A stretch of 64,000 bases of DNA. It comes from a virus. Position numbers and translations under genes: made by a program. Shown piece after piece: positions 1-57,443 of the stretch. Where the stretch lies: IMG/VR virus record IMGVR_UViG_3300043465_002420; one strand, written 5' to 3'. How positions within the stretch are numbered: the stretch's first letter is position 1; every line of letters begins with the position of its first letter. The notes beneath the pieces are model-generated. The model was not told the DNA's origin. It ran no database searches and saw only the letters and a list, made by a program, of their open reading frames with translations.

Positions 1-135
1 ATAGATCCTATCAAAAAAAATGAAGTTGCCGAAATATTTAAGTCTCACAAATTGAAATTCAAAGTTGTTCCAGACCAATTGGCATCGCAAAAAATTCATA
101 ACAGAACTCCATCTGAAAAGGTGGAAACAAAATGA
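1..135 (+). CDS. 3' end of a hypothetical protein (5' end outside window)
   Basis: Frame 1 is open from base 1 (IDPIKKNEVAEIFKSHKLKF...VETK) to TGA at 133-135 and overlaps the next start as ATGA. Confidence 0.5.
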   Translation: MDPIKKNEVAEIFKSHKLKFKVVPDQLASQKIHNRTPSEKVETK

Positions 136-3100
136 TAGATCCAAAACTGGTGAAAAAATGGGATATAGTTTTCGCTCTACAAGAAAAGGGATGTGGGTAT
201 TTCGCAACATATGAAGCAGTAGTCATTGTGCCACGACCTTGTACCGGAGGGTCAAGTGCTTATTGGACTCTTGCTTCTCCTTGCCCAGATGGTTGCACAT
301 CTTCTCCTCCTCCTCAATTGCCAACAAATCCTCCATGCGATCCTAATTACCCTGACAATGGAACGGAAAATGACATAATCGGGTGCTGCGAAGGTATAGT
401 TTCAGTCGAATGCTCCGGCACTTGCTGTAAATGCGGTGGTGTAGAGTGTTTGACAACGGAGACATGCTGTGACGATGTTTGTGTGAACTTACAAACAGAT
501 CGTGACCACTGTAATTCTTGTACCACCCCTTGCAATCCAGATCAAGACTGCTGTGATGGCGAATGCAAAAACATATACGAAGACAGCAATAATTGTAATG
601 GTTGCGGAAATGTTTGCCCTGAAGCTACACCAACTTGCTGCAATGGTGATTGCTGCACGACAGCGAATTGTTGTTTCGTTGATGACATCCTTACTTGTAT
701 TGATGTAACAAACAATCATGATCATTGCGGAAGATGCGACAATCCTTGTGCAGCCGAAGAAACATGCTGTTCTGGTGAATGCGTCAACACACAGACAGAT
801 AATGAGCATTGCGGATCATGTCCGAATGCTTGTCCTGTCGCATTCACATGCTGTTCTGGTGTATGCAAAGAATTATTTGGGGATGATCGTTTAAATTGTG
901 GCGATTGTGGCAAAACTTGCGTTGTAGGAGAAATATGCAAAAACGGTGTTTGCAAAGACGCTTGTGCTGCGAACGACTGCGAGTTTACTTGGGTTGATCC
1001 TCCGGGTTGTTGTAGCCGTTATGTCTGTTCGACTGAAAATGAGTATGCGTTTTCTTCTTCATACACTTCAATTACAGATTGCTCTGTCGATAGCCCTCCA
1101 AATATACCTTGCGATGGAAGCCCAGAATCTACAGGTTATTTTTACCTTACATGGAGTCCAGAGCCGTGTTGTACTGGATCTTGTCAATCTTTTTGTCTAG
1201 AACCAACTTGCACTTGGTCAGGTCCAGAAAACTCTACTTGTGGAGAGGGTTGTGCTTGCCAATCATTTGAAGGTCAACCTTGTGCATGTGGAACACTCAG
1301 AGACGATCCATGTATAAGAACAGTAGTACCTCCCGGACAATGGAATGCAACTGCGACATGTCCACAAGGATGCAACTGCCCCGGGAACGCCCCAATACAA
1401 AATGGAACAAATGGTCAAGTAGTCAGTTACGAATGCGTCAATTGCCTTGCTCCATGTGAAGCAGGAGAAAAATGCTGTTTCGGCACATGTAAAAACATAC
1501 TGACAGATCCTCTTAATTGCGGAGATTGTGGAAACAATTGTGGCGATCAGATTTTGGGAAACAAATGCTGTAATGGGAAATGCGTAAACATACTTACAGG
1601 GGATTTAAACTGCGGAGATTGCACAACTGTATGTCCATTTCCAGAAGTATGCTGCAATGGCGTATGCAAAAATCGTAACACTGACAATTACAACTGCGGA
1701 TCTTGCGGTTACGAGTGCCAGACTGGAATTGGGGAAACCTGCTGCAATGGGATTTGCGTAAACGAAAATACCGACAGAAACAACTGTGGCTCCTGCGGAT
1801 TTACATGTCCCAACGCAGATCAGTGCATTGATGGAAACTGCGTTCCATGCGTTCCTCCATGTCTAGAAGCTGGTACGGCTTGCTGCAACAATCAGTGCAT
1901 CGACATATTGTCTGACGAGAGCAACTGCGGTGGTTGCAATATACCTTGTGCTGGCAAGTGCTGCGGTGGCATTTGCGTATTAGATTTGAACACCATGTTT
2001 AACTGTGGTGATTGCGGAATAGAGTGTCCGCAATTGATCAACCAAATCAATCTGTGGCAGTGCTGTAACGGTCAATGCAAGAACCTAAAAACTGATCCAG
2101 AAAACTGCGGATTTTGCGGAAATGTATGTCAAGAACCTCCGGGTGACACATTTACAGTTCCAAAATGTTTCTTGGGAAACTGTGCGGAACCAGAATGCGA
2201 TTGTCAAGGATATGAAGCTGGAATGCCACCACAACCTGGGCCAGACGATGTGGCTTTCGTGGCTTCATGCGTTGGAAACACGGTAAGTTGTGATGGATCT
2301 TGTTATTTCAATGCTGTAGGCGGAGGATGGGTTCTGTATGAAGAGCCGGGCGGAACTGGATTTTCTGGTACCTGCGGAAAAGAACCAGATTACACATATT
2401 GCGTTGATGACAAATATGCATGTGTGGATGACAAATATGTTTGTGTCGGAGATATATATTATTGTGTAAAAAACATAGAAGGACAAGATATGCCAACTTA
2501 TTGTATACCTGCTGCATCGTTTAACGCTGAAACACAAGCACTAATCGGATCTTACATCGGAGCAGAAAACTGTGCCGCTGGTTGTAGCGGTGATGGAAGC
2601 GAGTGCGATCCTGCTTGTGGCAATGGATTAACCTGTTGTGATACACAATGCGTAGACACGCAAACTGACAGTGCCAATTGCGGTGGTTGTGGTGGCGGTC
2701 CTTGTGCTGCTGGCGAGGCTTGCAAAGATGGAGTTTGCACAGGATGTACGCCTCCATGTGCCGATGGTGAATCGTGCTGCGAAGGTGGAACGACATGCTG
2801 CGAAACTTGCTGTGCTGACGCATGTTGTCCAACTGGTCAATCATGTGTTGATGGAGTGTGTGCCACATGCGAACCACCTTGTACTGCTGGACAAACCTGC
2901 TGTGGAGGATCATGTTGTGATGCTGGAATAATATGCTGTGACCAAACATGTTGTGCTGAAGGTGAGTTCTGCGAAAACGGAAGTTGTGCAACATGCAACC
3001 CAGTGTGCTATCCAGACGAGACATGCTGCGATGCAACATGCGTTAGGTGGCAATGTGGAGAATGCCCAAATGCATGTGCTTCTGCTGAAATAGTTTGTTG

Positions 3101-4496
3101 CGGTTTGCCGGGTCAAGAAGTATGTTGTCCTGAAGGTCAAACTTGTGTTGAGAATGCGTGTTACGGATGTACACCTCCTTGTTCCGAAAGTCAGGATTGT
3201 TGCGATGAGGTATGCACAGAAGTTGGAACAGACACAAATTGTTCGGGTTGTGGTGACGCTTGTGGAGAAGGAACAAAATGCTGCGATAAAGTGTGTACTG
3301 CTACTGGAACTGACACAAACTGTTCGGATTGTGGCGATGCTTGTGCCGAAGGTCAGAGTTGTTGTGATGATGTATGCACAGAAATTGGAACCGACACAAA
3401 TTGTTCGGGTTGTGGTGATGCTTGCACAGACGGAAAATGTTGTGAGGGAGTGTGCAAAGAAACACAAACCGACAATGAAAATTGTGGCGATTGCGAAAAT
3501 GTATGTAATACAGCAGAAGGTGAAAAATGTGTTGCTGGAGTATGTGTTACTTGTGATCCACCTTGTACTGGACTTGATGTATGTTGTGATTTAACATGCT
3601 GCAAAGTTTGTTGCGGTCCAGAAGGTAGTAAGACATGCTGTGCTGAAGGAAAAATCTGTTTAAATGGTCAGTGTAGCGGTTGTGAACCAGAATGTACAGA
3701 ACCTGGACAAACTTGTTGCACCAATCCTAATCAGCCTAATCCTACAGAGGAGGAACCAAGTCCACCAATAGGACAATGTTGCCCTGCTGGAGTTCTTTGT
3801 TGTGCTGGTGGATGCTGCCCTAATGAAAATTTTTACTGTTGTGATAACAAAGTATGTTGCTTCAATGATCGTGCTTGTTGCAATGGAGTTTGCTGTGCTG
3901 AAGGTAAATTCTGCAATAATGGCGTGTGTGCTGATTGTAATCCAACATGCTACTCTGATGAAAAATGTTGTCCTGGAACTACTGGTAGCGGGGAATGTAT
4001 TAGGTGGCAATGTGGCGATTGCCCAAATGCATGTACACGATTCCAAACATGCACCAATAATGTTTGTTGCGATGCAGTAACGGAGGGTCCACTATCAGGG
4101 CAAACTGGTGTAGGTTGCGGAACTGTTTGTTGCGACCCCGGTATCACATGTTGCCGAGACATTTGTTGTTTAGACCCTGACGAAGAATGTTGCGATGGCT
4201 TTTGCGTAAATACCAATTCTATCGACAATAATAATTGCGGAGGTTGTGGCCAGCCATGTGTCGCTCCAGCAACTTGTTGTAATGGTTCGTGTAGAACAGT
4301 TTTTGCAGACACTTCTAGTTGCGGAAGTTGCGGGAATACATGTTCACTTGGAATGCTTTGCTGCCCTGATAACGGTGGCTGCGTTTACCCATCGTATTTA
4401 AATTGTGGTAGTTGCGGAAATGAATGTGAAGTAGGACAATCATGTTGCCCAGATGAACAAGGCGGTCACACATGCTTGGCTCAAGGTTCATGTTAA
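132..4496 (+). CDS. 1454-aa cysteine-rich repeat protein with ~20 STIG1-like motifs
   Basis: About 20 copies of C-x(4-6)-D-x(2-3)-[NH]C[GS]xCxxxC (e.g. CVNLQTDRDHCNSC, CKNILTDPLNCGDCG). Roughly one residue in five is Cys (by eye). No obvious signal peptide. Confidence 0.8.
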   Translation: MIDPKLVKKWDIVFALQEKGCGYFATYEAVVIVPRPCTGGSSAYWTLASPCPDGCTSSPPPQLPTNPPCDPNYPDNGTENDIIGCCEGIVSVECSGTCCKCGGVECLTTETCCDDVCVNLQTDRDHCNSCTTPCNPDQDCCDGECKNIYEDSNNCNGCGNVCPEATPTCCNGDCCTTANCCFVDDILTCIDVTNNHDHCGRCDNPCAAEETCCSGECVNTQTDNEHCGSCPNACPVAFTCCSGVCKELFGDDRLNCGDCGKTCVVGEICKNGVCKDACAANDCEFTWVDPPGCCSRYVCSTENEYAFSSSYTSITDCSVDSPPNIPCDGSPESTGYFYLTWSPEPCCTGSCQSFCLEPTCTWSGPENSTCGEGCACQSFEGQPCACGTLRDDPCIRTVVPPGQWNATATCPQGCNCPGNAPIQNGTNGQVVSYECVNCLAPCEAGEKCCFGTCKNILTDPLNCGDCGNNCGDQILGNKCCNGKCVNILTGDLNCGDCTTVCPFPEVCCNGVCKNRNTDNYNCGSCGYECQTGIGETCCNGICVNENTDRNNCGSCGFTCPNADQCIDGNCVPCVPPCLEAGTACCNNQCIDILSDESNCGGCNIPCAGKCCGGICVLDLNTMFNCGDCGIECPQLINQINLWQCCNGQCKNLKTDPENCGFCGNVCQEPPGDTFTVPKCFLGNCAEPECDCQGYEAGMPPQPGPDDVAFVASCVGNTVSCDGSCYFNAVGGGWVLYEEPGGTGFSGTCGKEPDYTYCVDDKYACVDDKYVCVGDIYYCVKNIEGQDMPTYCIPAASFNAETQALIGSYIGAENCAAGCSGDGSECDPACGNGLTCCDTQCVDTQTDSANCGGCGGGPCAAGEACKDGVCTGCTPPCADGESCCEGGTTCCETCCADACCPTGQSCVDGVCATCEPPCTAGQTCCGGSCCDAGIICCDQTCCAEGEFCENGSCATCNPVCYPDETCCDATCVRWQCGECPNACASAEIVCCGLPGQEVCCPEGQTCVENACYGCTPPCSESQDCCDEVCTEVGTDTNCSGCGDACGEGTKCCDKVCTATGTDTNCSDCGDACAEGQSCCDDVCTEIGTDTNCSGCGDACTDGKCCEGVCKETQTDNENCGDCENVCNTAEGEKCVAGVCVTCDPPCTGLDVCCDLTCCKVCCGPEGSKTCCAEGKICLNGQCSGCEPECTEPGQTCCTNPNQPNPTEEEPSPPIGQCCPAGVLCCAGGCCPNENFYCCDNKVCCFNDRACCNGVCCAEGKFCNNGVCADCNPTCYSDEKCCPGTTGSGECIRWQCGDCPNACTRFQTCTNNVCCDAVTEGPLSGQTGVGCGTVCCDPGITCCRDICCLDPDEECCDGFCVNTNSIDNNNCGGCGQPCVAPATCCNGSCRTVFADTSSCGSCGNTCSLGMLCCPDNGGCVYPSYLNCGSCGNECEVGQSCCPDEQGGHTCLAQGSC

Positions 4497-4529
4497 AAAA
4501 ACAGGCTTGATTTTCAAGCCTGTTTTTTT
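4495..4529. terminator. Bidirectional rho-independent terminator
   Basis: A7-CAGGCTTG-ATTTT-CAAGCCTG-T7 between convergent genes. Confidence 0.85.
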
Positions 4530-5303: not shown

Positions 5304-6666
5304 TTATAAATCAAAACAAATAGATCTACCGCCTCTAGCCTCAGACATGAATCGACTAAACAAAAGACCTTCAAATACTGGATCAACATCAGTAATTCCA
5401 AGACAATAGCAAATCAAAGAACCACAAGCACTTCCCCTGCCTGGCCCCACAGCTTGAGTTCCATCACCACCTATATTCTCTTTGCACCACTTTCTTGCCT
5501 CATCAGTCATCATTTTTTGAATAAGAAAATATGTACTAAATCCTTTTCGAGTAATAAGACTTAATTCTTCAATTATTCTGTCTTTATATTCTTTGGTCTT
5601 AGGCAAGTTTCTCTGCTTGAATCCTTGTATGACTAAATCTTTAAGCTTTTCGTCACAATCAGGCAAAATTGGTAATTTTAAACTTCTATCAAGTTCAACT
5701 CCTTTTGCCATTCTGCAAATCTCTACTGTATTCTTTTTAGCTTCACAAAAAATTTCATATGGAATAACATCACTATAATCTTTAGCCCATTTTTCGTTAA
5801 GTTCTTCCTCTGACTTCATCCATAAGTTGGCATCTTGCAATTCAAAAAAGTCTTTCATGGCATCTTCTTTCATTGCCTTTTGAATTTCTTGAATTGTTCT
5901 ATTTGTCTGTACCATTAACATAAGTCTTTGAAAGTGACTATCTTCCTTTCGACAATAATGACAATCATTTGTAAGAATTATTTTTAATTTATACTTTTCA
6001 TAAGCCTTGATGATAAATGCATCATAAGGCTTTTGTTTGACAAAATCTAAAAGCATAATTTCAAGAAAATAATTATCTCTACCAAACATCTCAATGTATC
6101 TTTCAATCATTTGAAATGCAGCTTCTTCACCACCAGAATCAAATGCTCTACCAACTTCGCTGTTATAGCAACAACTAGTAAAAAACAAACCTTCTTTATG
6201 TTTCTCAAGTTGTTCGTAATTTACTCTTGGCTTTCTATAAAATCCTTTTGTCCATCCCCAAGATGTAAGTCTTACTAGGTTTTTATAACCTATTTCACTA
6301 TGTGCAATCGCAAGAAGATGTGGACTAGCTCTCAATTCCTTTAATTCTATTTCGTTTAAGTTTTTAGAGAAATTTTGCATGTCTTGCAAAGAATCACTTG
6401 ATGGCTGTAACCTATTAACATATAGTTCTGCTGCGAATATAGGAGAAAGTTTGTTTTTACCAAACTTATCACAAATTTTCTCACAAGCTTTTATTTGTCT
6501 TGGAACAGCACCCAACATGCCATGATCACTAATAGTTAAAAAGTTTTGATTGATTTGGGTAGCTCTGAGTGAATATTCCTCACAAGTACCAAACCCATCT
6601 AAAACAGAAAAATCGGAATAACTAATGAAGGTGGAGATGTTCGAAACCGACAATCTCCACCTTCAT
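5304..6666 (-). CDS. dnaE: DNA polymerase III alpha, N-terminal half (PHP domain + start of palm); frame interrupted by a 7-nt gap at 6618-6624
   Basis: SD AAGGAG plus ATG 6666 gives MKVEIVGFEHLHLH then TAG. SDFSVLDG resumes 7 nt later, followed by TISDHG, AAELY, GFYRKPRV, LTNDCHY, GPGRGSACGSLICYCLGITDVDP and LLFSRF. The ORF ends before the catalytic PDxDxD. Confidence 0.85.
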
Positions 6667-6667
6667 T
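6624..6667 (-). promoter_or_regulatory. Hairpin spanning dnaE start codon to the gap
   Basis: Perfect 15-bp inverted repeat AATGAAGGTGGAGAT (6624-6638) / ATCTCCACCTTCATT (6653-6667), with a 3-bp upper stem and a GUUU loop in the mRNA. Confidence 0.75.
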
Positions 6668-6706
6668 GGAACTCCTTTCATAAATGTCATTGTTCAATCC
6701 TTTTGT

Positions 6707-6958
6707 TTACTTCCAGAGTTTATATTTTTCATACACTAGAGCTTCGCAATCCATAATTGCAATTCTTCTAGCGTACTTTCTTGGGGATAGGTATATTTTT
6801 TCGTCATCTTCATTAGATTCATCAGGCTTTACTTCACGCTCCATTGATATTAAATCATCAAGGATTTCAAGTGCTGTATTTTTTTCTATCTGATTAACTT
6901 TGTGAAGATGAAAAGCAAAAAACAATAAAAACAAAAAAGGAAAAATTAATTTTTTCAT
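6707..6958 (-). CDS. Hypothetical protein with hydrophobic N-terminus
   Basis: 83-aa ORF; ATGA overlap with the upstream small ORF. Confidence 0.55.
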   Translation of the reverse strand: MKKLIFPFLFLLFFAFHLHKVNQIEKNTALEILDDLISMEREVKPDESNEDDEKIYLSPRKYARRIAIMDCEALVYEKYKLWK

Positions 6959-7092
6959 TTTTGTTCTTTTTCAAAAAATGAATCATTGAAAGTGGCCATT
7001 TTGTAAATCACTCCCATTGCTACGGCTATTGAAACCAAAAGTATGGAAAATGAACCTACAAAAAATCCAATCCAGAAATTAAGATCAAACAT
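6955..7092 (-). CDS. 45-aa single-pass membrane protein (not in ORF track)
   Basis: SD AAGGAG, then MFDLNFWIGFFVGSFSILLVSIAVAMGVIYK...; ATGA overlap downstream. Confidence 0.6.
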   Translation of the reverse strand: MFDLNFWIGFFVGSFSILLVSIAVAMGVIYKMATFNDSFFEKEQK

Positions 7093-7165
7093 TAATTGCT
7101 ACTCCTTGTAGTGTGTCAAATCATCCTGATATAATATACCAAAAAAAATATCAAAGTAAACTAAT

Positions 7166-7387
7166 CTATTTTGCTTTGGTTAATGACTTTTGATCATCTG
7201 TTTGAGTTTTCTTCCATTTTTCAAATTCTTCTTGAAGAACTTGAGCCTGTTGCTCTAATTCTTTAAGTTTTGTTTGAGATTTATCGTAATAATCTTTTAA
7301 TTCTTGTTTTAATTTCTTCTTTTCACCATAAATGTCAGACACTTTTTGTGAAAAAGATACAAATTCTTCGCTCAATAGCCAATCCAT
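7166..7387 (-). CDS. Small coiled-coil protein
   Basis: 73 aa, K/E/Q/L-rich heptads, directly after spoVR. Confidence 0.6.
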   Translation of the reverse strand: MDWLLSEEFVSFSQKVSDIYGEKKKLKQELKDYYDKSQTKLKELEQQAQVLQEEFEKWKKTQTDDQKSLTKAK

Positions 7388-7395
7388 AATTCACC

Positions 7396-10300
7396 TTACC
7401 TTTTTGCTCGTATTCTTACATTTAAAGGATCATTGTCAAAACACTCAAAAACGATTTCGCTCCCATCATGACCTTTGGTCGATAGAAACACATCGTTTTG
7501 CCAAATAAACCTTAAAGAACAAAGAACATCACGAACATAAGGCTCGTATAGTGTTCTTCCCTCATAATTATGCTCCAACATAAGATAACCTTTGCCACGA
7601 TAATTTGGCTCAGTCAATCTAATATCTGGCAATCCACCATTAACATGCCTTGCCATAAGGAGTTTTTTTATTTTTTTATATTCATGACTTTCCAAGATTG
7701 TATCACCACTTGGATATTTTTTATATTCAAAATATTCTTGCTCTCTGCAAAAATCTTCAGTAAAAAATTCATGTATCAAAGTTAGATCATCGTAATACTT
7801 TCTAACTTCAAATATTTTTTCTTTTCCTAATTTTGCATTTGTATCCCAATTTTCTTTTTTGGTTGAATTTGTGCAATCATCCCATTCAGTTCCAAATTGG
7901 CCTTTATCCCATCTTTTTCTTATGTCCGAAAGAAGATTATAGCCTAGCTTATATGGATTAGTGCTATATTTTCCTCCAAGAACACCCATCTTATGTGCAG
8001 CATATTCTATGATTCCATCATCATGTGTTTTCTGGCCCAATGAAACATAACCCTGTTCTGCCATAATGACATGGTCGGTCATACTATTATGATTCATAAA
8101 TCCACAAGCCGAATATCGATGACTTGTTTCTACTGTAATGTCATACACTGTATCTTTTCCAATTTTTTCGATAGAAATAATTTCATCTTCAAGTTTTTGA
8201 TCAATAAACCATTTATGATTGTCAATATACTTCTTTAACTTTTGCTGTTTTCTAGATAATCCAAAACCTATTTGCTCATAATACTTTACCGCTTCCTGTC
8301 CGGTTATGCGTACATGCCAACAAGAATCTTTTTGTTTGCGTCTTGTTGATAATATGCAAAAATTCAACAAAACATTTTGTATTTGTCTGGAAAGAACTTC
8401 GCTTGCGGTGGAAAGAATAACACCAGCATCCCCCGCATAACCATCACAATCAAAATACGATCTTACAAAAGAAGCGATAACACTCTTGGGCGATTTAAGA
8501 ATAATTTCTGGTATTTGCTTAATCCTAGCACAGACTCCAGTTTTCATTCCCAAATAAACAAGTAGTTCTTCAAGTTCTTTTGAAGTTACAGAAATTCTAT
8601 ATCGACCATTTTTAGATGTGTCATCCCAACGAGATTTACAATCTATATTAAATAATTTCTTTGTAAGACGAATATAATTATCAGCTTGATCTTTATCTCC
8701 AGTTGTTAAGCCAAGAGTTCTCTTGCTTTTAGATATATGACCATCTCCAATCATATATCCAACAAATGAAGCAAATTCTTCATCCATAGAAAAAGGTAAA
8801 GATATACATTTTCTTTTATTTCTCATGCATGTCATAGACTGATCATCATATTGCTTGAGCAATTTGTCTAAATTGTCATTTTTTTCTTCACCTTTATAAT
8901 GATATTTTCTATAAACGACTTGAGACATAGTCGCTGATGCTTTTTTACAGATTTGCTTCAATTCTATCCTTTTATTGGGCAATTTATAATCGATTTTTTG
9001 ATATTTTTTCGTCCAAATATTTGAAAACGATATTTTAACTTTTTCTCCTACATTCATTTTATCAAGACGAACCCAATCATTATCACCCATAACTCTATGA
9101 TTATTTGAACCCTCAAAAACATATCCTCTTCTAGTTTCAATCCTATAAACATCACGATTTTCAAAAGTGAACCAATTTGTCACATTTCTAGATTTTTCAC
9201 CATCATAAACCATAACAGGCAACTTTTTATCAACAATTTCACCTAATGTCAAAATGCCCATATTTGTAGATACAAGAGAATCTCTTCGTCCGCAAGCCCA
9301 CCCCTCGTTTAATACCTTGGTTTGTCTCTGTGGGAAAAAATAAATTGATTCCTCATAGATCATAGACATAATATCTTGCTGCCATGGCTTCAATGGAGCA
9401 TTATCACGCAAGAATCCAAAAACATCTTTAACTGGTTCAATAAAAAATCCAAGCTCTTCTGCCAAATCTTTATCTTTAACCTTTTCGTTTTCTTTATCTT
9501 TAAAATCTTTGGTGTTGATATAAGAATCCATATAAAGTCTATCATTGCCAACTTTTAGTCGCCTTGGAAAACGATAATTTTTTTTATCAATAATGTTTTT
9601 ATCTTTAATTACTTTTTGATGCCAAGCTGATGCACCATCAATTAAATTGTCGATGCGAAGCAAATAATCAAGAAATTCAGTAACCTTTTCTTTACCCCAT
9701 CTAGCCATATATTTTCTTATACGACTCGCATGATTCGCCATGTTATTCAACATATTTGTGTCAGTGGCAGAAAAATGAATATTATTTTTAAAGAAATCAT
9801 TATGACCAGTAGCGTGAGCGATAACTGTCAAATGATCCAATAGAGTATTGCTATCTAAGCAATAGATGTAGCAAGGTGATGTATTATGGGTAATCAATCC
9901 ATATGCAATAAAATCATGAGAATCATGATCCAATGCAATATCAACAGTTTCGATCTCATCTCCATCAACAACATGCTCAACAACAAATAAAGGATTTGAA
10001 ATAATATCTTTAATTTCATTTGGAACACTTAATCCTTGATTTTCTGCTCTTTGTACAAATGAAGAAAAAGAATTAATCCCAACTTTTTGTTTCTCGAACA
10101 TTTTAATTGAATAACCAAGACTATGGTTGTTATATGTTGTGATTCCTACACTTTTTGCCCACATAATCAATTGTCGTTGAATGTAAGGCAACTCCATTCC
10201 AGAACTACGACAAAATTTTCTATCAAGTAATTTTTTAAGTAATTCTTGCTTATAGTTAAGCACAAAACCTATTCTATTGTAAAATTTATTTTCAGCCCAA

Positions 10301-11505
10301 ATTCCCTTAATTTTAACAACATTAATATATTTTTGATCACCTTTTTTACCCTTGCCATTTTTCAATGTTTTTAAATTAGAAAGAATTCCCATTTCCGAAA
10401 GCATAATCTGAACATCATCTGCCAATTTCTTATTATAACAACTAAAACCAACATGGTCAGCTACATAGCCATCAGTATCGAACAAACCACGAATAAAAGC
10501 ACATCTATAGGCAGGAGGAGACTTCCAAATAATATCTGGAATTATTTTTTCCTTAAATGTTTTACCTTTCTTTAAACCAATCGAATTAACAAAATCAACT
10601 GCGTTTTTTGAGCATAATGTTACATTGAAACAATTTGGTTTTTCGTAAATCTCTGCAACAACTCCAAATACCTTTTTAAATAAATCTACAACATGTTCTG
10701 CATATGTCCTGTGTTTTTTACCAACAGCAACGGTTAACATATTTTCAGCAGACTTTACTCCTATCGACCCATCTCCAACCAAAATTCCAAGAAGTTCCGC
10801 CAATTCTATCGTAATATGATTCGGTGGATAAATTTCTTTAATACAATGCCTAATGTTGGGCCTTGTTGATTCAAAAACTTGTTCGGATGACCAATCAATT
10901 CTTGGTGCATCCCAATTACTTTCATATGAATCAGTTCCTACAAAAATATCACCAGATACAACATCCGATGCTTTTTTCCAGATTAAACCATTATTAGAAA
11001 GAACACGCCATTTGTGATTTGGCGTACATACTAATGTTTGGCCATCTTTCAAACAAATTTTCTTAGTTTTAGAAGCGTTTTGTCTCTTTGTCGCAACAAC
11101 ATTCCTAGTTTCATTACCAACAATAACTTGATCGCCTACCTTCACATCTCCAGCTATAATTGTACCACGCTTAGTCAAAACTGGAGCATTAAGTTCACAG
11201 CAATTGATTACCATTTCATATATCTTATGCATTTGATTTTCATATCCACGCTGCAATTCTTCATATTGCATGCCAAACGACCAATGTGGATATCGTACTG
11301 GAAAACCACCATAAGCTGCTACTTCAGAGATTTCATCGTAGGTAAGAAGTTGCACTACAGTTGGATAAAAGTCTAAACCCCAATCTCTACAAACATTCAA
11401 AATTATTTGAGCATGTTCTTTTAATTGTTTTGGAAGTTGAACACCAGGAATAGTGTTATCGCCAATAAGAAGAGAAGAGCCATGCATAAACTTGTTAGAA
11501 GACAT
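7396..11505 (-). CDS. spoVR: SpoVR/YcgB family protein containing two inteins (526 aa after splicing)
   Basis: GGFPVRYPHWSFG, IYEMVIN|TSPCY, AHATGHNDFFKNN, YFFPQRQTKVLNEGWA|S, NPYKLG; operonic with yeaH and prkA. Confidence 0.92.
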   Translation of the reverse strand: MSSNKFMHGSSLLIGDNTIPGVQLPKQLKEHAQIILNVCRDWGLDFYPTVVQLLTYDEISEVAAYGGFPVRYPHWSFGMQYEELQRGYENQMHKIYEMVINCCELNAPVLTKRGTIIAGDVKVGDQVIVGNETRNVVATKRQNASKTKKICLKDGQTLVCTPNHKWRVLSNNGLIWKKASDVVSGDIFVGTDSYESNWDAPRIDWSSEQVFESTRPNIRHCIKEIYPPNHITIELAELLGILVGDGSIGVKSAENMLTVAVGKKHRTYAEHVVDLFKKVFGVVAEIYEKPNCFNVTLCSKNAVDFVNSIGLKKGKTFKEKIIPDIIWKSPPAYRCAFIRGLFDTDGYVADHVGFSCYNKKLADDVQIMLSEMGILSNLKTLKNGKGKKGDQKYINVVKIKGIWAENKFYNRIGFVLNYKQELLKKLLDRKFCRSSGMELPYIQRQLIMWAKSVGITTYNNHSLGYSIKMFEKQKVGINSFSSFVQRAENQGLSVPNEIKDIISNPLFVVEHVVDGDEIETVDIALDHDSHDFIAYGLITHNTSPCYIYCLDSNTLLDHLTVIAHATGHNDFFKNNIHFSATDTNMLNNMANHASRIRKYMARWGKEKVTEFLDYLLRIDNLIDGASAWHQKVIKDKNIIDKKNYRFPRRLKVGNDRLYMDSYINTKDFKDKENEKVKDKDLAEELGFFIEPVKDVFGFLRDNAPLKPWQQDIMSMIYEESIYFFPQRQTKVLNEGWACGRRDSLVSTNMGILTLGEIVDKKLPVMVYDGEKSRNVTNWFTFENRDVYRIETRRGYVFEGSNNHRVMGDNDWVRLDKMNVGEKVKISFSNIWTKKYQKIDYKLPNKRIELKQICKKASATMSQVVYRKYHYKGEEKNDNLDKLLKQYDDQSMTCMRNKRKCISLPFSMDEEFASFVGYMIGDGHISKSKRTLGLTTGDKDQADNYIRLTKKLFNIDCKSRWDDTSKNGRYRISVTSKELEELLVYLGMKTGVCARIKQIPEIILKSPKSVIASFVRSYFDCDGYAGDAGVILSTASEVLSRQIQNVLLNFCILSTRRKQKDSCWHVRITGQEAVKYYEQIGFGLSRKQQKLKKYIDNHKWFIDQKLEDEIISIEKIGKDTVYDITVETSHRYSACGFMNHNSMTDHVIMAEQGYVSLGQKTHDDGIIEYAAHKMGVLGGKYSTNPYKLGYNLLSDIRKRWDKGQFGTEWDDCTNSTKKENWDTNAKLGKEKIFEVRKYYDDLTLIHEFFTEDFCREQEYFEYKKYPSGDTILESHEYKKIKKLLMARHVNGGLPDIRLTEPNYRGKGYLMLEHNYEGRTLYEPYVRDVLCSLRFIWQNDVFLSTKGHDGSEIVFECFDNDPLNVRIRAKR
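8086..9294 (-). mobile_element. Intein 2 in SpoVR (403 aa) with LAGLIDADG homing endonuclease
   Basis: Starts CGRRDSLVSTNMG, has GSNNHRV and FVGYMIGDG / FVRSYFDCDG, ends MNHN followed by +1 Ser. Removal restores NEGWA-S. Confidence 0.9.
9883..11202 (-). mobile_element. Intein 1 in SpoVR (440 aa) with LAGLIDADG homing endonuclease
   Basis: Starts CCELNAPVLTKRG, has block B CTPNHKW and endonuclease motifs LLGILVGDG / FIRGLFDTDG, ends ITHN followed by +1 Thr. Removal restores YEMVIN-TSPCY. Confidence 0.9.
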
Positions 11506-12715
11506 TATCGGACTCCGTATTCAATTTAGCTTTTGATTTATCTGAACCCATTAATTTTTGAATAGCTTCTAATATTTGTTGATTTCTTTTTTCTTCTGTT
11601 AAAACAGCACCACCTTCTGCATTTATTTCAGTGGTCTTAATATTTTCTCTATTAAGATCTCCCTTTTCCAAAGCTTGATCAACTACATTTTTTATTGAGT
11701 TTGCGTAATTCCAAGGAAGTATTTGTGTTATTCCAACAAGATTTACGATTCTTTCTCCAAATGATTCTTTTAATGTGTTTATAAAAACTTGATTATCTTC
11801 TTCCCAATTGTCGCCATCGGTAAAATAAAATACATATATATTCCATTTTTCTGGGGGATATCGATTTTCAAATTGCTTAGAAATGAATTTCAAAGCAGAG
11901 CTACAAGTAGTGCCACCGCCAAATCTATAATTATAAAATTTTTCTTCATCTACTTCCATAGCAGAAGAATCATGCCAAACAAAAAGTCTATCTACTCTTT
12001 TGTAAAATCTTCTAATCCAAACATCAATCCACCAAGCCATATCAGAAACTATTTCGCACTTTTGCTGATCCATACTTCCAGATCCATCTCTAGCATATAT
12101 GATCAAAGCATTACTTGAAGGAACTTTAATTTCCTTGTATTGCCTATATCTTTTATCTCTTTTTATTGGCTTGATTGCCTTAATTGGATCTTTGCATCCT
12201 GGTACTATTTCCAAATCATTTATAGTTCCATCTGCTGCTTGTCTTTTTAGAGCTTCTAAAAATGTTCTTCTGTTATGCCTTAGTGATTCTGGGCCTACTA
12301 AAGATATGTTGTTATATTTTATTTTTACTTCATCAAATGTGTCGCTTACTTTTGGCTTTAGATTTGGAAGTTCTAATTCTCCCTGCATGAATTTTAAAAC
12401 TTCTTCAAGGTCAAGACTTATGGTAATTCCTTCACTTTCATCTTGACCAGCACCATTGCCATTACCCTTGCCCTTTTTGCCCTTGTCGATCACATCGCCA
12501 TCTTTGCCTTTTCCTCTTCCTGTTCCATTTCCATTATCGCCATAAAGGATTTGCGGAATATCGATTTTTGGAATGGATATCGATATTTTACCACGCTTAC
12601 CTCTAGACTTAACAATTTGGCCACTTTTGATAAATTTCTTTAGAGCTTTGCGTAGCTTGCCAGAAACAACATCAATAAAATCTTTGTGGTCTTCTTCAAT
12701 TCTTCTAGGACACAT
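11495..12715 (-). CDS. yeaH: YeaH/YhbH (DUF444) VWA-domain protein
   Basis: Gly-rich GxGxGxxGD segment, MIDAS-like DGSGSM, GGGTTCSSAL, YPPEKWNIYVFYFTDGDNW. Confidence 0.9.
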   Translation of the reverse strand: MCPRRIEEDHKDFIDVVSGKLRKALKKFIKSGQIVKSRGKRGKISISIPKIDIPQILYGDNGNGTGRGKGKDGDVIDKGKKGKGNGNGAGQDESEGITISLDLEEVLKFMQGELELPNLKPKVSDTFDEVKIKYNNISLVGPESLRHNRRTFLEALKRQAADGTINDLEIVPGCKDPIKAIKPIKRDKRYRQYKEIKVPSSNALIIYARDGSGSMDQQKCEIVSDMAWWIDVWIRRFYKRVDRLFVWHDSSAMEVDEEKFYNYRFGGGTTCSSALKFISKQFENRYPPEKWNIYVFYFTDGDNWEEDNQVFINTLKESFGERIVNLVGITQILPWNYANSIKNVVDQALEKGDLNRENIKTTEINAEGGAVLTEEKRNQQILEAIQKLMGSDKSKAKLNTESDNVF

Positions 12716-12751
12716 ATTTTAACAACCTCTTTACAAAAATTATTTGACATA

Positions 12752-14824
12752 TTATTCTTCTGCCAAATCGCCTCTAGCAAATATGCTTCCTACAAAATCA
12801 AGAACATCTGTTGCCGATCTTTCATTGTACCCGTATTGTTTTATCAAACGAGTCTTTATTGCATCGATCTTTTCTTGTATATCTTTATCAACTACTGTGG
12901 CACCAGAAACATTTAAAGCAGAAAGCTTAATAGTGTCTTTAACATCTTCAAACAATTTAGCTTCCAATGCTTTTTTCAATTTAGAATTAGAATCCCATCG
13001 GAATGTCTTATGCTTAATTGCAAGATCTCCAATGAATGCAGCGATTTGTCTTCGGAAATCATCAGCACCTTGCTCTGGGATATCTATTTTCGATTCAACA
13101 GCCCTCATAAGCCTTTCGTCTGGCTTTCTATCTTGTCCAGTAATTGGATCTTTGATTTTAGACTTATTGATATAGGCCATGATATTATCGATATAGTTGG
13201 TGCATAAACGAATTACTGCATCTTCATCGCCAACCAAGGCCTTTTGAACTTCTGCCTTCAAAATTTCAGTCAATTTCTTCACCACCAAATCAACACAAGT
13301 AATATATCGACCAACATCATCTTTATTATTTAGCAAAGAACTACCTTCTAGGCCATCTCTTAGTTCATTCAAAACCATGAACATATTTACATAATCATGA
13401 TTGTTCGCAAGGCAATTGGAAAGTTTGTCTTGAATATATCGAACAGAAACACCTCTAGTCATGCCTTCGTCTGGATATCTGTCTTTTAGCTCTTTGACCT
13501 GTTCGTCTGTCCAACCTGGTAAGAGCTTACCATCATACAATTCTGCTTTTTCAACCAAAGATATCTTTCCATCTTTGTCGTCATTTAGTCTTGTCAAAAT
13601 TGCCCATAATGCAGCAACTTCCAAGGTATGTGGAGCAATATGTTGCTTTACTTTTGTTGGCCCATAATCTTTTTCTAGAATCTTTAGCTCTTCTTCCCAA
13701 CGCAAAGTATAAGGAACATCAATCTTTACAGTTCTATCTCTAAGTGCTTCCATATATTGATTGCTTCTAAGTTTTTCATATTCTGGATTATTGGTGTGTG
13801 TAAATATAGCCTCATCGATACCAACTTGACTAAATTTCTTTGGCTTGATACTTTGTTCTTGTGATGCTCCTAAGAGATCGTACAAGAATGCTTGATCTAG
13901 CTTCAAAGCCTCTATAAATTCAATCATTCCCCGATTTCCCACACAAAATTCCCCGTCAAAATTAAAAGCTCTAGGATCAGAATCGGCACCGAATGTTCCA
14001 ATTCTGCCAAAGTTTATATCGCCAGTAAGTTCAGTACTATCTTGATTTTTTTCGTCTTTAGGTTGAAATGTTGCAATACCACAACGATCAGACTCACTAA
14101 ATGTCTTACGAATAACACGGATATGTTTTTCAAGAATCTTTTCCAAATCACCATCATATTTTTTCAACAATGCATTCATGAAAAATCTACATCTTGGATC
14201 TAGTTCTCCTTCGCATCGCAATTCATAAATTTCAGATCTTTCACTTTCTGGAACTGATTCTAACAAAGCACGATTAATTTCTTCCATGATTGGCTTTCGC
14301 ACTTCTGGTGGCAGTAGCTTTAATGGCTGCTCATGCATTGGGCATTCATCTTCATCTTTTAAGTAAATCCCATCGACACCTGTTGGAAGATTAATCCATT
14401 TAAAACTATACCAAGCTCCAGCATCGGTGGTGGAATAACGCTCCATTTCTCTTTTGAACAATCTGCAAAGAGTTGATTTTGAGCTTCCTACAGGACCATG
14501 AAGAAGCAAAATTCGTTTTTCTGTTCCGAAATGACCAGCAGCACCCTTGATGAATTTAACAAGAGAATCTTTAGTTGGTGTCAAGCCAATAATGGGATAT
14601 TCTGGGTTGTCGAAAAAATTATAATGTTTATATGTTTTGCGATATTCTTCTACTGGGTAGAATCCTTTTTCTATCACCATATCAAAAATAATTTGCCAAG
14701 AATTCCTAAGTAACTTTGGATTGGTGTAACACAAATCTACATATTCAGAAAACGACATTTCGTTATTGAGAATTTTAAATTTACTTTGATCAAATTTACC
14801 TATAAACTTATTTAAAGCGTTCAT
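12752..14824 (-). CDS. prkA: PrkA/YeaG AAA+ serine kinase/ATPase
   Basis: EKRILLLHGPVGSSKST (Walker A), DEKNQDSTELTG, DPRAFNFDGEF, NRGMIEFIE, HTNNPEY, EALRDR. Confidence 0.93.
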   Translation of the reverse strand: MNALNKFIGKFDQSKFKILNNEMSFSEYVDLCYTNPKLLRNSWQIIFDMVIEKGFYPVEEYRKTYKHYNFFDNPEYPIIGLTPTKDSLVKFIKGAAGHFGTEKRILLLHGPVGSSKSTLCRLFKREMERYSTTDAGAWYSFKWINLPTGVDGIYLKDEDECPMHEQPLKLLPPEVRKPIMEEINRALLESVPESERSEIYELRCEGELDPRCRFFMNALLKKYDGDLEKILEKHIRVIRKTFSESDRCGIATFQPKDEKNQDSTELTGDINFGRIGTFGADSDPRAFNFDGEFCVGNRGMIEFIEALKLDQAFLYDLLGASQEQSIKPKKFSQVGIDEAIFTHTNNPEYEKLRSNQYMEALRDRTVKIDVPYTLRWEEELKILEKDYGPTKVKQHIAPHTLEVAALWAILTRLNDDKDGKISLVEKAELYDGKLLPGWTDEQVKELKDRYPDEGMTRGVSVRYIQDKLSNCLANNHDYVNMFMVLNELRDGLEGSSLLNNKDDVGRYITCVDLVVKKLTEILKAEVQKALVGDEDAVIRLCTNYIDNIMAYINKSKIKDPITGQDRKPDERLMRAVESKIDIPEQGADDFRRQIAAFIGDLAIKHKTFRWDSNSKLKKALEAKLFEDVKDTIKLSALNVSGATVVDKDIQEKIDAIKTRLIKQYGYNERSATDVLDFVGSIFARGDLAEE

Positions 14825-31763: not shown

Positions 31764-31829
31764 TGTAAATTAACCCGATCATATCTGAAAACCAACGGAA
31801 TTCGACCATTTAATCATATGATCAGGTAG

Positions 31830-31902
31830 TACCCCTAGCAGGATTCGCACCTGCGACCAATAAATTAGAAATTTATTGCTCTATCTCCTGAGCTATAGGG
31901 GC
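31830..31902 (-). tRNA. tRNA-Arg (anticodon TCT), CCA not encoded
   Basis: GCCCCTA/TAGGGGT acceptor, GCTC/GAGC D stem, ATAAA-TTTCTAA-TTTAT anticodon arm, GCAGG-TGCGAAT-CCTGC T arm. Confidence 0.9.
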
Positions 31903-40399: not shown

Positions 40400-42388
40400 T
40401 CAAACATTAAATGCCCACCTTACTTTACCACAATCCCATATTCTGCTTAATCCATTTTGTAATGCCCATTCTTTTTCACTTATATCTTTAGGACAGCCAG
40501 TATTGCATTTCATTTGACTCTGTTTGCTTATTCTTTCTTTTGGATAGCTCATATTCACATATGCATAATCAGAACCTAATTCTTCTTCTAATTTAAAATT
40601 TAAATTTTTATAAATAGAACCATTGCTCCACCTACTATCACTCCAACTTATAATCTTCTTGATTCCATTATTCTTGCACCAATTTACACAATGTGAAAAT
40701 AGTTTACTTGCACCACCAACTATCTGATGACCAGCCTTAAAACATAAACGAGTTAAAACCATTTCACCTTTTGTTTGTTTGCGATGATGGACACCTAAAT
40801 CCATTACACCAATTAATTCATCTTCGCAATATAAACCAAAACAAACTTTTGCTAAAGAATTACCACCTTGTACATGATGTTTATCACAAAAATCAGTAAA
40901 TTCCTTTTTGCTAATTTCTTTTGCTGTACATTTTCTTGCATAAAGTCTTTTTTCGAAAACTCCAAGTTTACTTAGAATGACACTTTTGATTACTTCTTGA
41001 TTGTTAAGCCATTCATCTTCGAAAATTGTTATAAGTTGAATGCCTTTTTCTTTACAAATATTAAACTTACTGATGTGGTAGTTACTTGGTCTTGGTTGAG
41101 GTGAGTTTTCATGATGCCAATATAAACCACAATATTCTATAGCAAACTTTAAATTAGAATCATATAAATCAAGCTCTTTGCTACCTAAAACTGTATGATC
41201 TGATTGAAAGTTAAAACCAAACGAATTCAACCAGTTTTGTATTTCTTTTTGAGTCTTGCCATATTTTCTCTGTGGATATGGAGAGCCATATCGTTCTATA
41301 TTTGTTTGCCTTATTTTTTCTTGTATTTCTGGAGATTGTATTGGATATTCAACACCAAATCTATCCAAGCATGTTTGTTTTACTTTTTCTTTGATTTCTG
41401 GTGATGAAGAAGCATATTCATGTCCAAATTTCTCCAAACATATTTGCCTTACTTTTTCTTGAACTTCTGGCGAAAGGAAAGGGTTTTCGTATCCAAATCT
41501 TTCCAAACATGTCTGTCTTACTTTTTCTTTGAATTCTGGTGAAGAAGAAGCGTATTCATGTCCAAACCTTTCTAAGTTCGTTTGTCTTACTTTCTCTTGG
41601 ATCTCTGGTGAGGAAGAAGCATGATCGTGTCCGAATTTTTCAAGACTCGTTTGTCTTGCTTTTTCTTTCATTTCCGAAGATTGCATAATGTACTCAACGC
41701 CATATCTTTCAATATTTGTTTCTCTGGTTTTTTCTAATATTTCTGGTCGTTGATTTGGATTTTCTACACCATATCTCTGAATATTAGTTTGCTTTATTTT
41801 TTCTCTTGTTTCCAAAGAACTTATTTGATACTCAACACCATATTTTTCAATGTTTGTTTGTCTAGTTTTTTCTAATATTTCTGGGGATTGCATGGCATGT
41901 TCATGTCCATATTTTTCAATATTAGTTTGTCTTGATTTTTCTTTAACTTCTGGTGATTGTAAAGAATATTCGACACCAAATCTTTCCAAGCATGTTTGTT
42001 TTACTTTTTCTTTGATTTCTGGTGAGGAAGAAACATGTTCGTATCCATATTTTTTTAAATTTGTTTGTTTCTTTTTTTCTTGTGTTTCCGATAATTTACT
42101 TGCATGTTCAACACCAAATTTTTTCATGCAAGTATCTTTGATTTTATTTATTATATCTTTTCTTTGAAAGTTATATTCAACACCATGTACTTTTAAATTA
42201 GATTCTTTAATTTTTTTTGCTACACAGACTCTGTTGGAACAGCAATCTTTTTCAATTATTTTACGAGAATTCACATAACTATATTTTTTTTTATTAGACT
42301 CATCTCCACAATAATCACAAGTGAAAACAATTGATTCACGAGCTTTAATTTTCTCAAATGGTTTGTCCAACTTTTCTAGGATCAGCAT
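40400..42388 (-). CDS. Putative free-standing endonuclease: Zn-binding N-terminus, 14 x 23-aa repeats, PD-(D/E)xK/Vsr-like nuclease, GNAT-like C-terminal domain (Hef-like)
   Basis: CDYC/CC..C; repeats [KR]QT[NC][LI]E[KR][YF]GxExxxxSPE[IV]xEK; ELDLY...AIEYCGLYWH; LYARKC...LTRLCFK...VGGASKLF...SWSDSRW...IWDCGK. Confidence 0.7.
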   Translation of the reverse strand: MLILEKLDKPFEKIKARESIVFTCDYCGDESNKKKYSYVNSRKIIEKDCCSNRVCVAKKIKESNLKVHGVEYNFQRKDIINKIKDTCMKKFGVEHASKLSETQEKKKQTNLKKYGYEHVSSSPEIKEKVKQTCLERFGVEYSLQSPEVKEKSRQTNIEKYGHEHAMQSPEILEKTRQTNIEKYGVEYQISSLETREKIKQTNIQRYGVENPNQRPEILEKTRETNIERYGVEYIMQSSEMKEKARQTSLEKFGHDHASSSPEIQEKVRQTNLERFGHEYASSSPEFKEKVRQTCLERFGYENPFLSPEVQEKVRQICLEKFGHEYASSSPEIKEKVKQTCLDRFGVEYPIQSPEIQEKIRQTNIERYGSPYPQRKYGKTQKEIQNWLNSFGFNFQSDHTVLGSKELDLYDSNLKFAIEYCGLYWHHENSPQPRPSNYHISKFNICKEKGIQLITIFEDEWLNNQEVIKSVILSKLGVFEKRLYARKCTAKEISKKEFTDFCDKHHVQGGNSLAKVCFGLYCEDELIGVMDLGVHHRKQTKGEMVLTRLCFKAGHQIVGGASKLFSHCVNWCKNNGIKKIISWSDSRWSNGSIYKNLNFKLEEELGSDYAYVNMSYPKERISKQSQMKCNTGCPKDISEKEWALQNGLSRIWDCGKVRWAFNV

Positions 42389-50057: not shown

Positions 50058-50058
<1 letters not shown>
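48901..50058 (-). CDS. RCC1/BLIP-II 7-blade propeller protein
   Basis: Seven ~51-aa blades. Confidence 0.88.

Positions 50059-57443
<7,385 letters not shown>

Follow-up and report, generated by a model that had tools for sequence, protein, structure and literature searches.

A probable ribosomal stop-hop in a phage dnaE gene, associated with homing-endonuclease cassettes

The gene for the PHP-containing part of a phage DNA polymerase III alpha subunit (dnaE-N) is interrupted within its PHP motif by seven nucleotides that begin with a stop codon. The gene lies in the window, a 64,000-nt stretch of virus record IMGVR_UViG_3300043465_002420, on a 165-kb, 33% GC virus contig (G000; the virus record is 34% complete). 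The minus strand reads ATG (6666) ... CAT, then TAGTTAT, then TCC GAT (Table 1). The frame opened by ATG 6666 encodes MKVEIVGFEHLHLH and ends at TAG, while excision of exactly the seven bases TAGTTAT fuses this leader to SDFSVLDG, as was pointed out in the original prediction of a programmed translational bypass. With this skip the second His comes to lie 7 residues before the metal-binding Asp, which is the spacing of Taq and Mtb DnaE. In Mtb DnaE1 the CAT codon aligns to H16, and the Asp is D23 (PMC5636811). The dnaE-N body matches Pfam PHP (2.9e-29) and DNA_pol3_alpha (1.3e-24), and the nine PHP ligand positions are all conserved across the family. The protein of the open reading frame track starts at TTG 6653 (449 aa), and its N-terminus indeed lacks the His residues.

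Table 1. Features of the dnaE-N locus, in window coordinates.
Feature	Position	Strand	Remarks
dnaE-N body, resumed at TCC	5304..6617	-	PHP and N-terminal polymerase part, 437 aa
7-nt coding gap TAGTTAT	6618..6624	-	stop TAG 6624-6622; near-matched landing triplet TAT 6620-6618
take-off codon CAT	6625..6627	-	encodes the second His of HxH in the PHP motif
15-bp stem with 14-nt loop, formed from coding sequence	6624..6667	-	arms 6667-6653/6638-6624
SD-like AAGGAG, directly 5' of the stem	6672..6677	-	leader-internal SD, or SD for alternative ATG 6666
ATG of 22-codon leader, probable true dnaE-N start	6688..6690	-	weak SD AAGGA 6702-6698; start use presumed
slot of the HNH gene in L002, here two small ORFs	6707..7207	-	blastn of window against L002
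conserved 73-aa coiled-coil gene, upstream flank of cassette site	7166..7387	-	present in many gapped and ungapped relatives

The seven nucleotides are not an assembly error. Five further JGI assemblies (L001 and L229-L232) contain the identical gap and diverge from the window at synonymous sites; L001 differs from it by 23 synonymous and 1 nonsynonymous changes. Values of dN/dS among gapped alleles range from 0.01 to 0.08, similar to those of ungapped pairs, and for the dnaE-N body of the window they are 0.01 against L001 and 0.075 against L002. Between the window and L002 the body has reached a pS of 0.58, while the gap is kept, the 30 stem bases are unchanged and the stem loop carries two synonymous changes. 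The gene is thus undecayed, with no relaxation of selection.

The gap proved to be one member of a large natural series. The 5' ends of 110 distinct relatives from IMG/VR and metagenome scans were scored, and the PHP motif was found to be interrupted at three positions, by 50 insertion sites in all. Gaps of 5, 6, 7 or 8 nt follow the last His (site A; 31 alleles), gaps of 40-44 nt with an internal hairpin follow the Asp (site B; 10 alleles), and gaps of 6, 15 or 46-48 nt follow the Leu of LDG (site C; 9 alleles). An in-frame stop (TAG, TGA or TAA) directly follows the take-off codon at 31/31 A sites and 9/9 C sites, and is absent after the presumed Asp take-off codon of site B. The downstream frame is open across all out-of-frame site-A gaps. 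The long gaps of L008, L021, L077 and L088 contain stops in the downstream frame, so that a frameshift at the take-off codon is ruled out for these alleles. The gaps of 5-48 nt (5, 6, 7, 8, 15 and 40-48 nt) span all three frames, and one hop would account for every length and frame. Among the 6-nt alleles, L035, L040 and L044 (Leu-stop-Leu) and L039 have the geometry of an in-frame stop-hop. Gaps at A and C occur together in four alleles (L076, L078, L079 and L094), which would need two successive hops. L189, whose 1-nt deletion is probably an error, was scored as ungapped, and L052, L075, L093, L197 and L198 were left unscored. A search with a degenerate pattern added one new allele, L228; candidates L205-207, L209 and L214-217 were rejected as chance matches outside dnaE, and a genome scan of G000 for further sites with a stem, a stop and a short gap within an ORF returned only off-frame chance matches.

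Several details of the series may be recorded here. The two gaps of the double alleles lie within six codons of each other, 8 nt after the His and 46-48 nt after the Leu, and the second has a gene 60-like stem that holds the take-off codon and stop. The site-B alleles (L008, L012, L021, L063, L077, L095, L124, L178, L188 and L196) carry two tandem stems. L086 and L087 have the full stem and long leader and no gap, probably through a precise loss of the gap, recent in L086; partial stems are retained in L082 and L096. In three ungapped relatives (L128, L130 and L233) the segment from HxH to LDG is longer by one residue, so that at the sequence level the motif tolerates an additional residue in some lineages. 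Close to site C, at a distance of a few nt, the PHP motif also holds group I introns, at 2767-2992 of L032 (confirmed by Rfam, RF00028, 90.7 bits) and at ~2779-3005 of L047; L047 also has the HNH gene upstream. The 30-nt PHP motif is a hot spot for mobile inserts.

The hairpin at the foot of the gap was found as predicted: a perfect 15-bp inverted repeat whose 3' arm codes for HLHLH and terminates on the U of UAG. The 165-kb genome contains 18 perfect repeats of at least 12 bp, five of which reach 15 bp. The fold of this stem has a z of -4.1, equalled in 0/200 shuffles. Over the site-A alleles the mean folding energy is -22.8 kcal/mol (z -4.3), against -10.1 kcal/mol (z -0.1) in ungapped alleles, and the 12 core pairs form completely in all 27 single site-A alleles compared with a mean of 6.4 in 62 ungapped ones. 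The core pairs are intact in 299 of 300 cells, with compensatory change at 4 pairs. No shuffle or slid register matched the observed pairing, although the shuffle test is inflated by the relatedness of the alleles. The same leader is encoded in L005 by different synonymous codons, without gap or stem, and at B and C the position of the stem shifts with the site. The alignment of homologues thus bears out the expectation that relatives retain the gap and a covarying hairpin together. At 50/50 sites the distance from the end of a helix of at least 7 pairs to the final triplet of the gap is 3-8 nt (the minimum of 3 being set by construction). The corresponding control values are 14% for ungapped alleles at the same codons and 18% for random codons under the same energy cut.

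The last triplet of the gap follows the take-off tRNA, being NAY after His and NTY/CTN after Leu. Among the 24 distinct alleles with a His site it is NAY in 20 and has a middle A in 21, and it matches the take-off codon at two or more of three positions in 23, the GTC of L036 being a single-position match. Position 1 is mismatched in 18 of the 24 and identical in 6. The third base differs from that of the take-off codon in 12 of the 20 NAY landings and is still a pyrimidine, a pattern suggestive of G34 wobble. The middle base is T at 8/8 Leu sites and always A at Asp sites. Middle A thus occurs at 27/30 His or Asp sites against 0/8 Leu sites (p=3e-6), a value that overstates the case because the alleles are related. 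This switch of landing triplet between sites would be hard to explain without the ribosome. In the window the landing codon is a near match to the take-off codon (CAT against TAT) and not a full one. The direct repeat said to flank the gap exists here as an ATT repeat, but it is not conserved in other alleles. Compensation of gap length by the offset of the SD-like tract showed no pattern among alleles and was discarded.

The proposed initiation signals need revision in part. AAGGAG, ATG 6666 and UAG stand in the sequence as stated; nevertheless the conserved start is ATG 6690. In 27/27 site-A alleles an in-frame ATG precedes the last His by 20-25 codons, a distance that in ungapped ones is mostly 12-15 codons, and the ATG at the 6666 position is missing from many site-A alleles; in L041 and L068 the upstream ATG overlaps the stop of the HNH gene as ATGA. 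From the conservation of the upstream ATG, the frequent lack of the other one and the overlap in L041, AAGGAG is probably an internal element of the 22-codon leader, adjoining the 5' foot of the stem. ATG 6690 is accordingly the probable true start of dnaE-N. SD motifs as such are in use in this genome (49/132 ORFs of G000, against 4 controls). An SD-like tract beside the 5' side of the stem occurs in 27/27 site-A alleles and in 0/4 double-gap alleles; an anti-SD duplex of -5 kcal/mol or stronger at this position is found in the same 27/27 and 0/4, and in 32/62 ungapped alleles. The internal AAGGAG could help landing once the stem has formed, and the double-gap alleles do without it. An extended pairing of AAGGAG with the landing region is perfect in L002 but was rejected as not general.

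The origin of the gap was sought upstream of the gene. When the window was compared with L002 by blastn, both flanks matched and 6712-7207 did not. In the close relative L002 this slot holds a 273-aa HNH endonuclease (phrog_559 match, 3e-17), and in the window it holds two ORFs of 45 aa (~7092-6955) and 83 aa (6958-6707), without a Pfam match in either; the 83-aa ORF had no match in PHROGs, and no homologue of the L002 HNH protein was found in the 34% complete record of G000. The slot thus holds two orphan ORFs, so the nuclease is gone and the gap remains, and the gap of the window can be read as the tolerated scar of a lost nuclease cassette. Nuclease loss with retention of the gap has been described for several relatives of gene 60 (10.1101/2022.08.31.505936). 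In the series an HNH gene lies upstream of 13/39 gapped and 2/54 ungapped alleles (p=3e-4). These upstream ORFs, in which a Pfam search detected no nuclease domain, were assigned to HNH by PHROGs and by the motifs W-H-x-D-H, N-L-Q-P and N-x-x-K. The site-A label requires at least 12 gains or losses on the gene-body tree, and from this patchy distribution the gapped alleles appear to be mobile. Two comparisons illustrate the exchange. Immediately behind the landing triplet L076 and L070 enter a stretch of 99.4% identity, and the sequences preceding the triplet give no blastn match to each other. Relative to L011, L041 carries an inserted 269-aa HNH-family (phrog_559) gene and a new leader, identity stopping after the 73-aa coiled-coil gene and restarting at dnaE. 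We infer from this cassette pattern that the PHP stretch is probably the target of the nuclease and that the gap may confer protection against it. The idea of a switch that controls the phage polymerase found no supporting evidence: the gap travels with the HNH cassette and is repeatedly gained and lost, and because it is freely lost regulation is unsupported.

Together, these results make it likely that dnaE-N is read by a programmed ribosomal stop-hop, by which the scar left by a homing-endonuclease cassette is tolerated. According to this reading, an HNH gene of the free-standing kind would insert upstream of dnaE-N and substitute its own version of the first ~20-30 codons, and this replacement 5' end would bring the extra bases that interrupt the conserved HxH-S/T-D-F-S-x-L-D-G stretch. 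After translating the 22-codon leader the ribosome would pause with UAG in its A site and peptidyl-tRNA-His still paired to CAU. On its way out of the ribosome, the mRNA would then re-zip into the 15-bp stem, whose 3' arm consists of the codons just read; re-zipping would extract mRNA and drive the ribosome 3', and the push would stop once the stem is complete. At UAU, which matches in positions 2-3 and lies 3-6 nt behind the stem, the tRNA would pair anew, and decoding would restart at UCC to give ...HLHLH-SDFSVLDG with the canonical spacing from His to Asp. The hop, the stem as its driver, the exact landing site, the role of the internal SD and the immunity function are here deduced from comparative sequence data. 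Whether a second, independent bypass family is represented, in which just-read coding sequence refolds and the stem alone sets both the take-off and the hop length, seems to us a little short of an even call. With similarly guarded confidence, neither a matched codon nor a nascent-peptide signal may be needed, and the event may be efficient enough for an essential replicase. Such a family might also cover natural in-frame stop-hops, two hops within ten codons and the immunisation of a target at multiple positions, a tentative proposal that we hold slightly less probable than its opposite.

Other readings of the locus were weighed against the stop-hop. The slow stop and a 5' stem could in principle stimulate a +1 shift, and ordinary recoding at the stop would leave a PHP motif with 1-2 extra residues, by +1 shifts at 7-nt gaps, -1/+2 shifts at 5- and 8-nt gaps and readthrough at 6-nt gaps. 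The open downstream frame of the out-of-frame site-A gaps and the natural one-residue insertions of L128, L130 and L233 agree with this, and because such ungapped relatives exist the motif alone is also compatible with a shorter, 4-nt hop giving H-Y-S. We nevertheless consider recoding or a shorter hop unlikely, as three mechanisms would be needed at one site under one stem, the tracking of the take-off tRNA by the landing triplets would be left unexplained, and gaps of 40-48 nt whose downstream frame contains stops would not be covered. The +1 product, HLHLH-SY-SDFS, fits the motif worse, as had been argued from the start: its two extra residues are seen in no ungapped homologue. Removal at the RNA level, whether of a micro-intron that enzymes of the phage or the host cut and ligate, by group I trans-excision or through a jump of RNA polymerase behind the nascent hairpin, is in our view quite unlikely. 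It would suit the position of the gap at the base of a strong stem, the ATT repeat at both gap ends here and the true group I intron a few codons away in relatives (L032). Against it, the gap ends are unconserved, the ATT repeat is missing from other alleles, and both the interchange of three in-frame stops and the wobble-type landing are signatures of the ribosome. A group I intron needs a ribozyme core, a 5' exon ending in U and a terminal G, whereas the gap has 7 nt and no terminal G, and no Rfam match over threshold was obtained at the gap under conditions in which the L032 control intron was recovered. No RtcB was found in G000, again a record only 34% complete. Of the bypass or RNA-processing switch first proposed, a short-gap bypass is therefore best supported and RNA processing is disfavoured.

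Gene callers report the open 449-aa frame from TTG 6653, and a start there or later would yield a PHP-truncated subunit for which the leader is irrelevant or only regulatory. This is very unlikely: TTG 6653 is buried in the stem and unconserved across frames, HLHLH is retained by the leader in all gapped alleles, and the nine PHP ligand positions are conserved throughout the family. AlphaFold gave a mean pLDDT of 82.9 for an ungapped relative with the leader and 74.9 for the truncated body without it, values obtained at different alignment depths; with the leader the first 20 residues stood at ~81, and without it segments 1-9 and 219-227 fell under 50. That the gene is a pseudogene or an assembly error, as its broken appearance might suggest, is scarcely credible in view of the recurrence of the gap in five other assemblies, the low dN/dS and the persistence of gap and stem bases to a pS of 0.58. 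Reassignment of TAG was rejected because the frame changes across the gap and TAG terminates 13/132 long ORFs.

The proposed stop-hop can be compared with known bypass systems, foremost T4 gene 60 and its MobA-cassette homologues (Manning & Atkins, 10.1101/2022.08.31.505936), where pairing of the exiting mRNA has been proposed as the driver (Wills et al., 10.1101/2024.12.09.627546). Both concern an essential phage replication gene with a stop right after the take-off codon, stem-loops and an HNH-delivered insert in which the nuclease cassette also brings a replacement 5' end. Both show recurrent independent insertion, frequent loss of the nuclease with the gap kept, and an adjacent HNH gene (here phrog_559, predicted) or a trace of its loss, the slot being replaced in the window. 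In T4 the host gene is the type II topoisomerase large subunit and the gaps measure 20-50 nt, whereas here it is dnaE-N (PHP and Pol III alpha) with a 7-nt gap. The T4 stem has a tetraloop, holds the take-off codon, the stop and the 5' part of the gap, and loops out the gap; the stem described here lies 5' of the gap, has a 14-nt loop and is made of already translated codons ending at the take-off. Landing codons of the T4 family are read by the same tRNA, whereas position 1 is mismatched in most alleles here, and the T4 mini-SD 5-7 nt 5' of the landing has no counterpart in the linear gap sequence. T4 also uses a nascent-peptide signal, in an N-terminal extension of ~46 codons; the leader here has only 14-22 codons and would probably lack that signal. 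The long site-C alleles L076, L079 and L088, which have a stem of the T4 type, stand closer to gene 60.

A 10-nt bypass in Streptomyces phage Hau3's terminase gene, confirmed by MS in E. coli with UUA changed to UAA (Antonov et al., PMC10732093), is similar in its short gap within a conserved region, nearby internal SD and stem, and slow A-site codon. In nature it is triggered by the hungry codon UUA, for which a role in regulation has been proposed, compared with a true stop TAG here, and four sites are known in Streptomyces phage terminases, compared with 50 in the dnaE series, represented here by a 33% GC phage. No nuclease link was seen in the passages of PMC10732093 consulted, in contrast to the HNH association here. 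In synthetic E. coli stop-hops 9 nt are read as one residue, at a low level and unprogrammed, and a 2016 review knew no natural in-frame stop-hop (PMC5009743). The hop over a stop between flanking codons has the same geometry in L035, L039, L040 and L044, which differ in being natural and in a conserved gene with a dedicated stem. On this comparison the putative stop-hop resembles T4 gene 60 and Hau3 in its working and belongs to neither family, and the literature search returned no report of bypass in dnaE. The double gaps of L076, L078, L079 and L094 recall the byps of Magnusiomyces mitochondria, mobile inserts that translation skips and of which one gene contains several. The byps are longer, contain an internal hairpin and are triggered by an unused codon.

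Very few systems are known to use programmed bypassing. The dnaE locus would shrink such a system to ~70 nt, and the exiting-mRNA driver proposed for gene 60 would be found here in a much smaller form. What happens at the mRNA exit has been called 'arguably the main unsolved problem' (Wills et al., 10.1101/2024.12.09.627546). Among the 50 natural variants the frame and length of the gap, the landing mismatch and the position of the stem all differ, which opens the driver model to direct testing in a reporter. The pattern also suggests a general route by which selfish nucleases break their own target without killing an essential gene. In practical terms, gene callers mis-start dnaE in this phage group.

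Some further observations concern the gene and its genome. DnaE is split into two genes ~9.3 kb apart, at 5304-6690 (-) of the window and G000:C1 91871-94612 (-). The split point lies just before the PDIDID motif and is common to the whole homologue family, whose N-parts are mostly ~400-490 aa. The C-part starts with a degenerate repeat of the preceding segment, and no intein match or obvious intein ends were found in the two halves. No close relative was found among cultured phages, the best record being the uncultured, ungapped 595-kb LR756511.1 (52.7%). Elsewhere in the window, a cysteine-rich 1454-aa protein with Stig1-like repeats (132-4496, +) is followed by a 16-bp hairpin resembling a bidirectional terminator (4495-4529), and 7396-14824 (-) holds a phage-borne PrkA - DUF444 (YeaH) - SpoVR operon in which the 1369-aa SpoVR contains two LAGLIDADG inteins, missing in some relatives (~535 aa). 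One tRNA-Arg(TCT) gene lies at 31829-31902 (-), and 40400-42388 (-) encodes a protein of 662 aa that has DUF7487 together with a weak Mom-family domain. The 2445-aa product of 50058-57395 (-) combines many RCC1 and collagen repeats with a C-terminal Peptidase_S74 chaperone and is a probable tail fibre.
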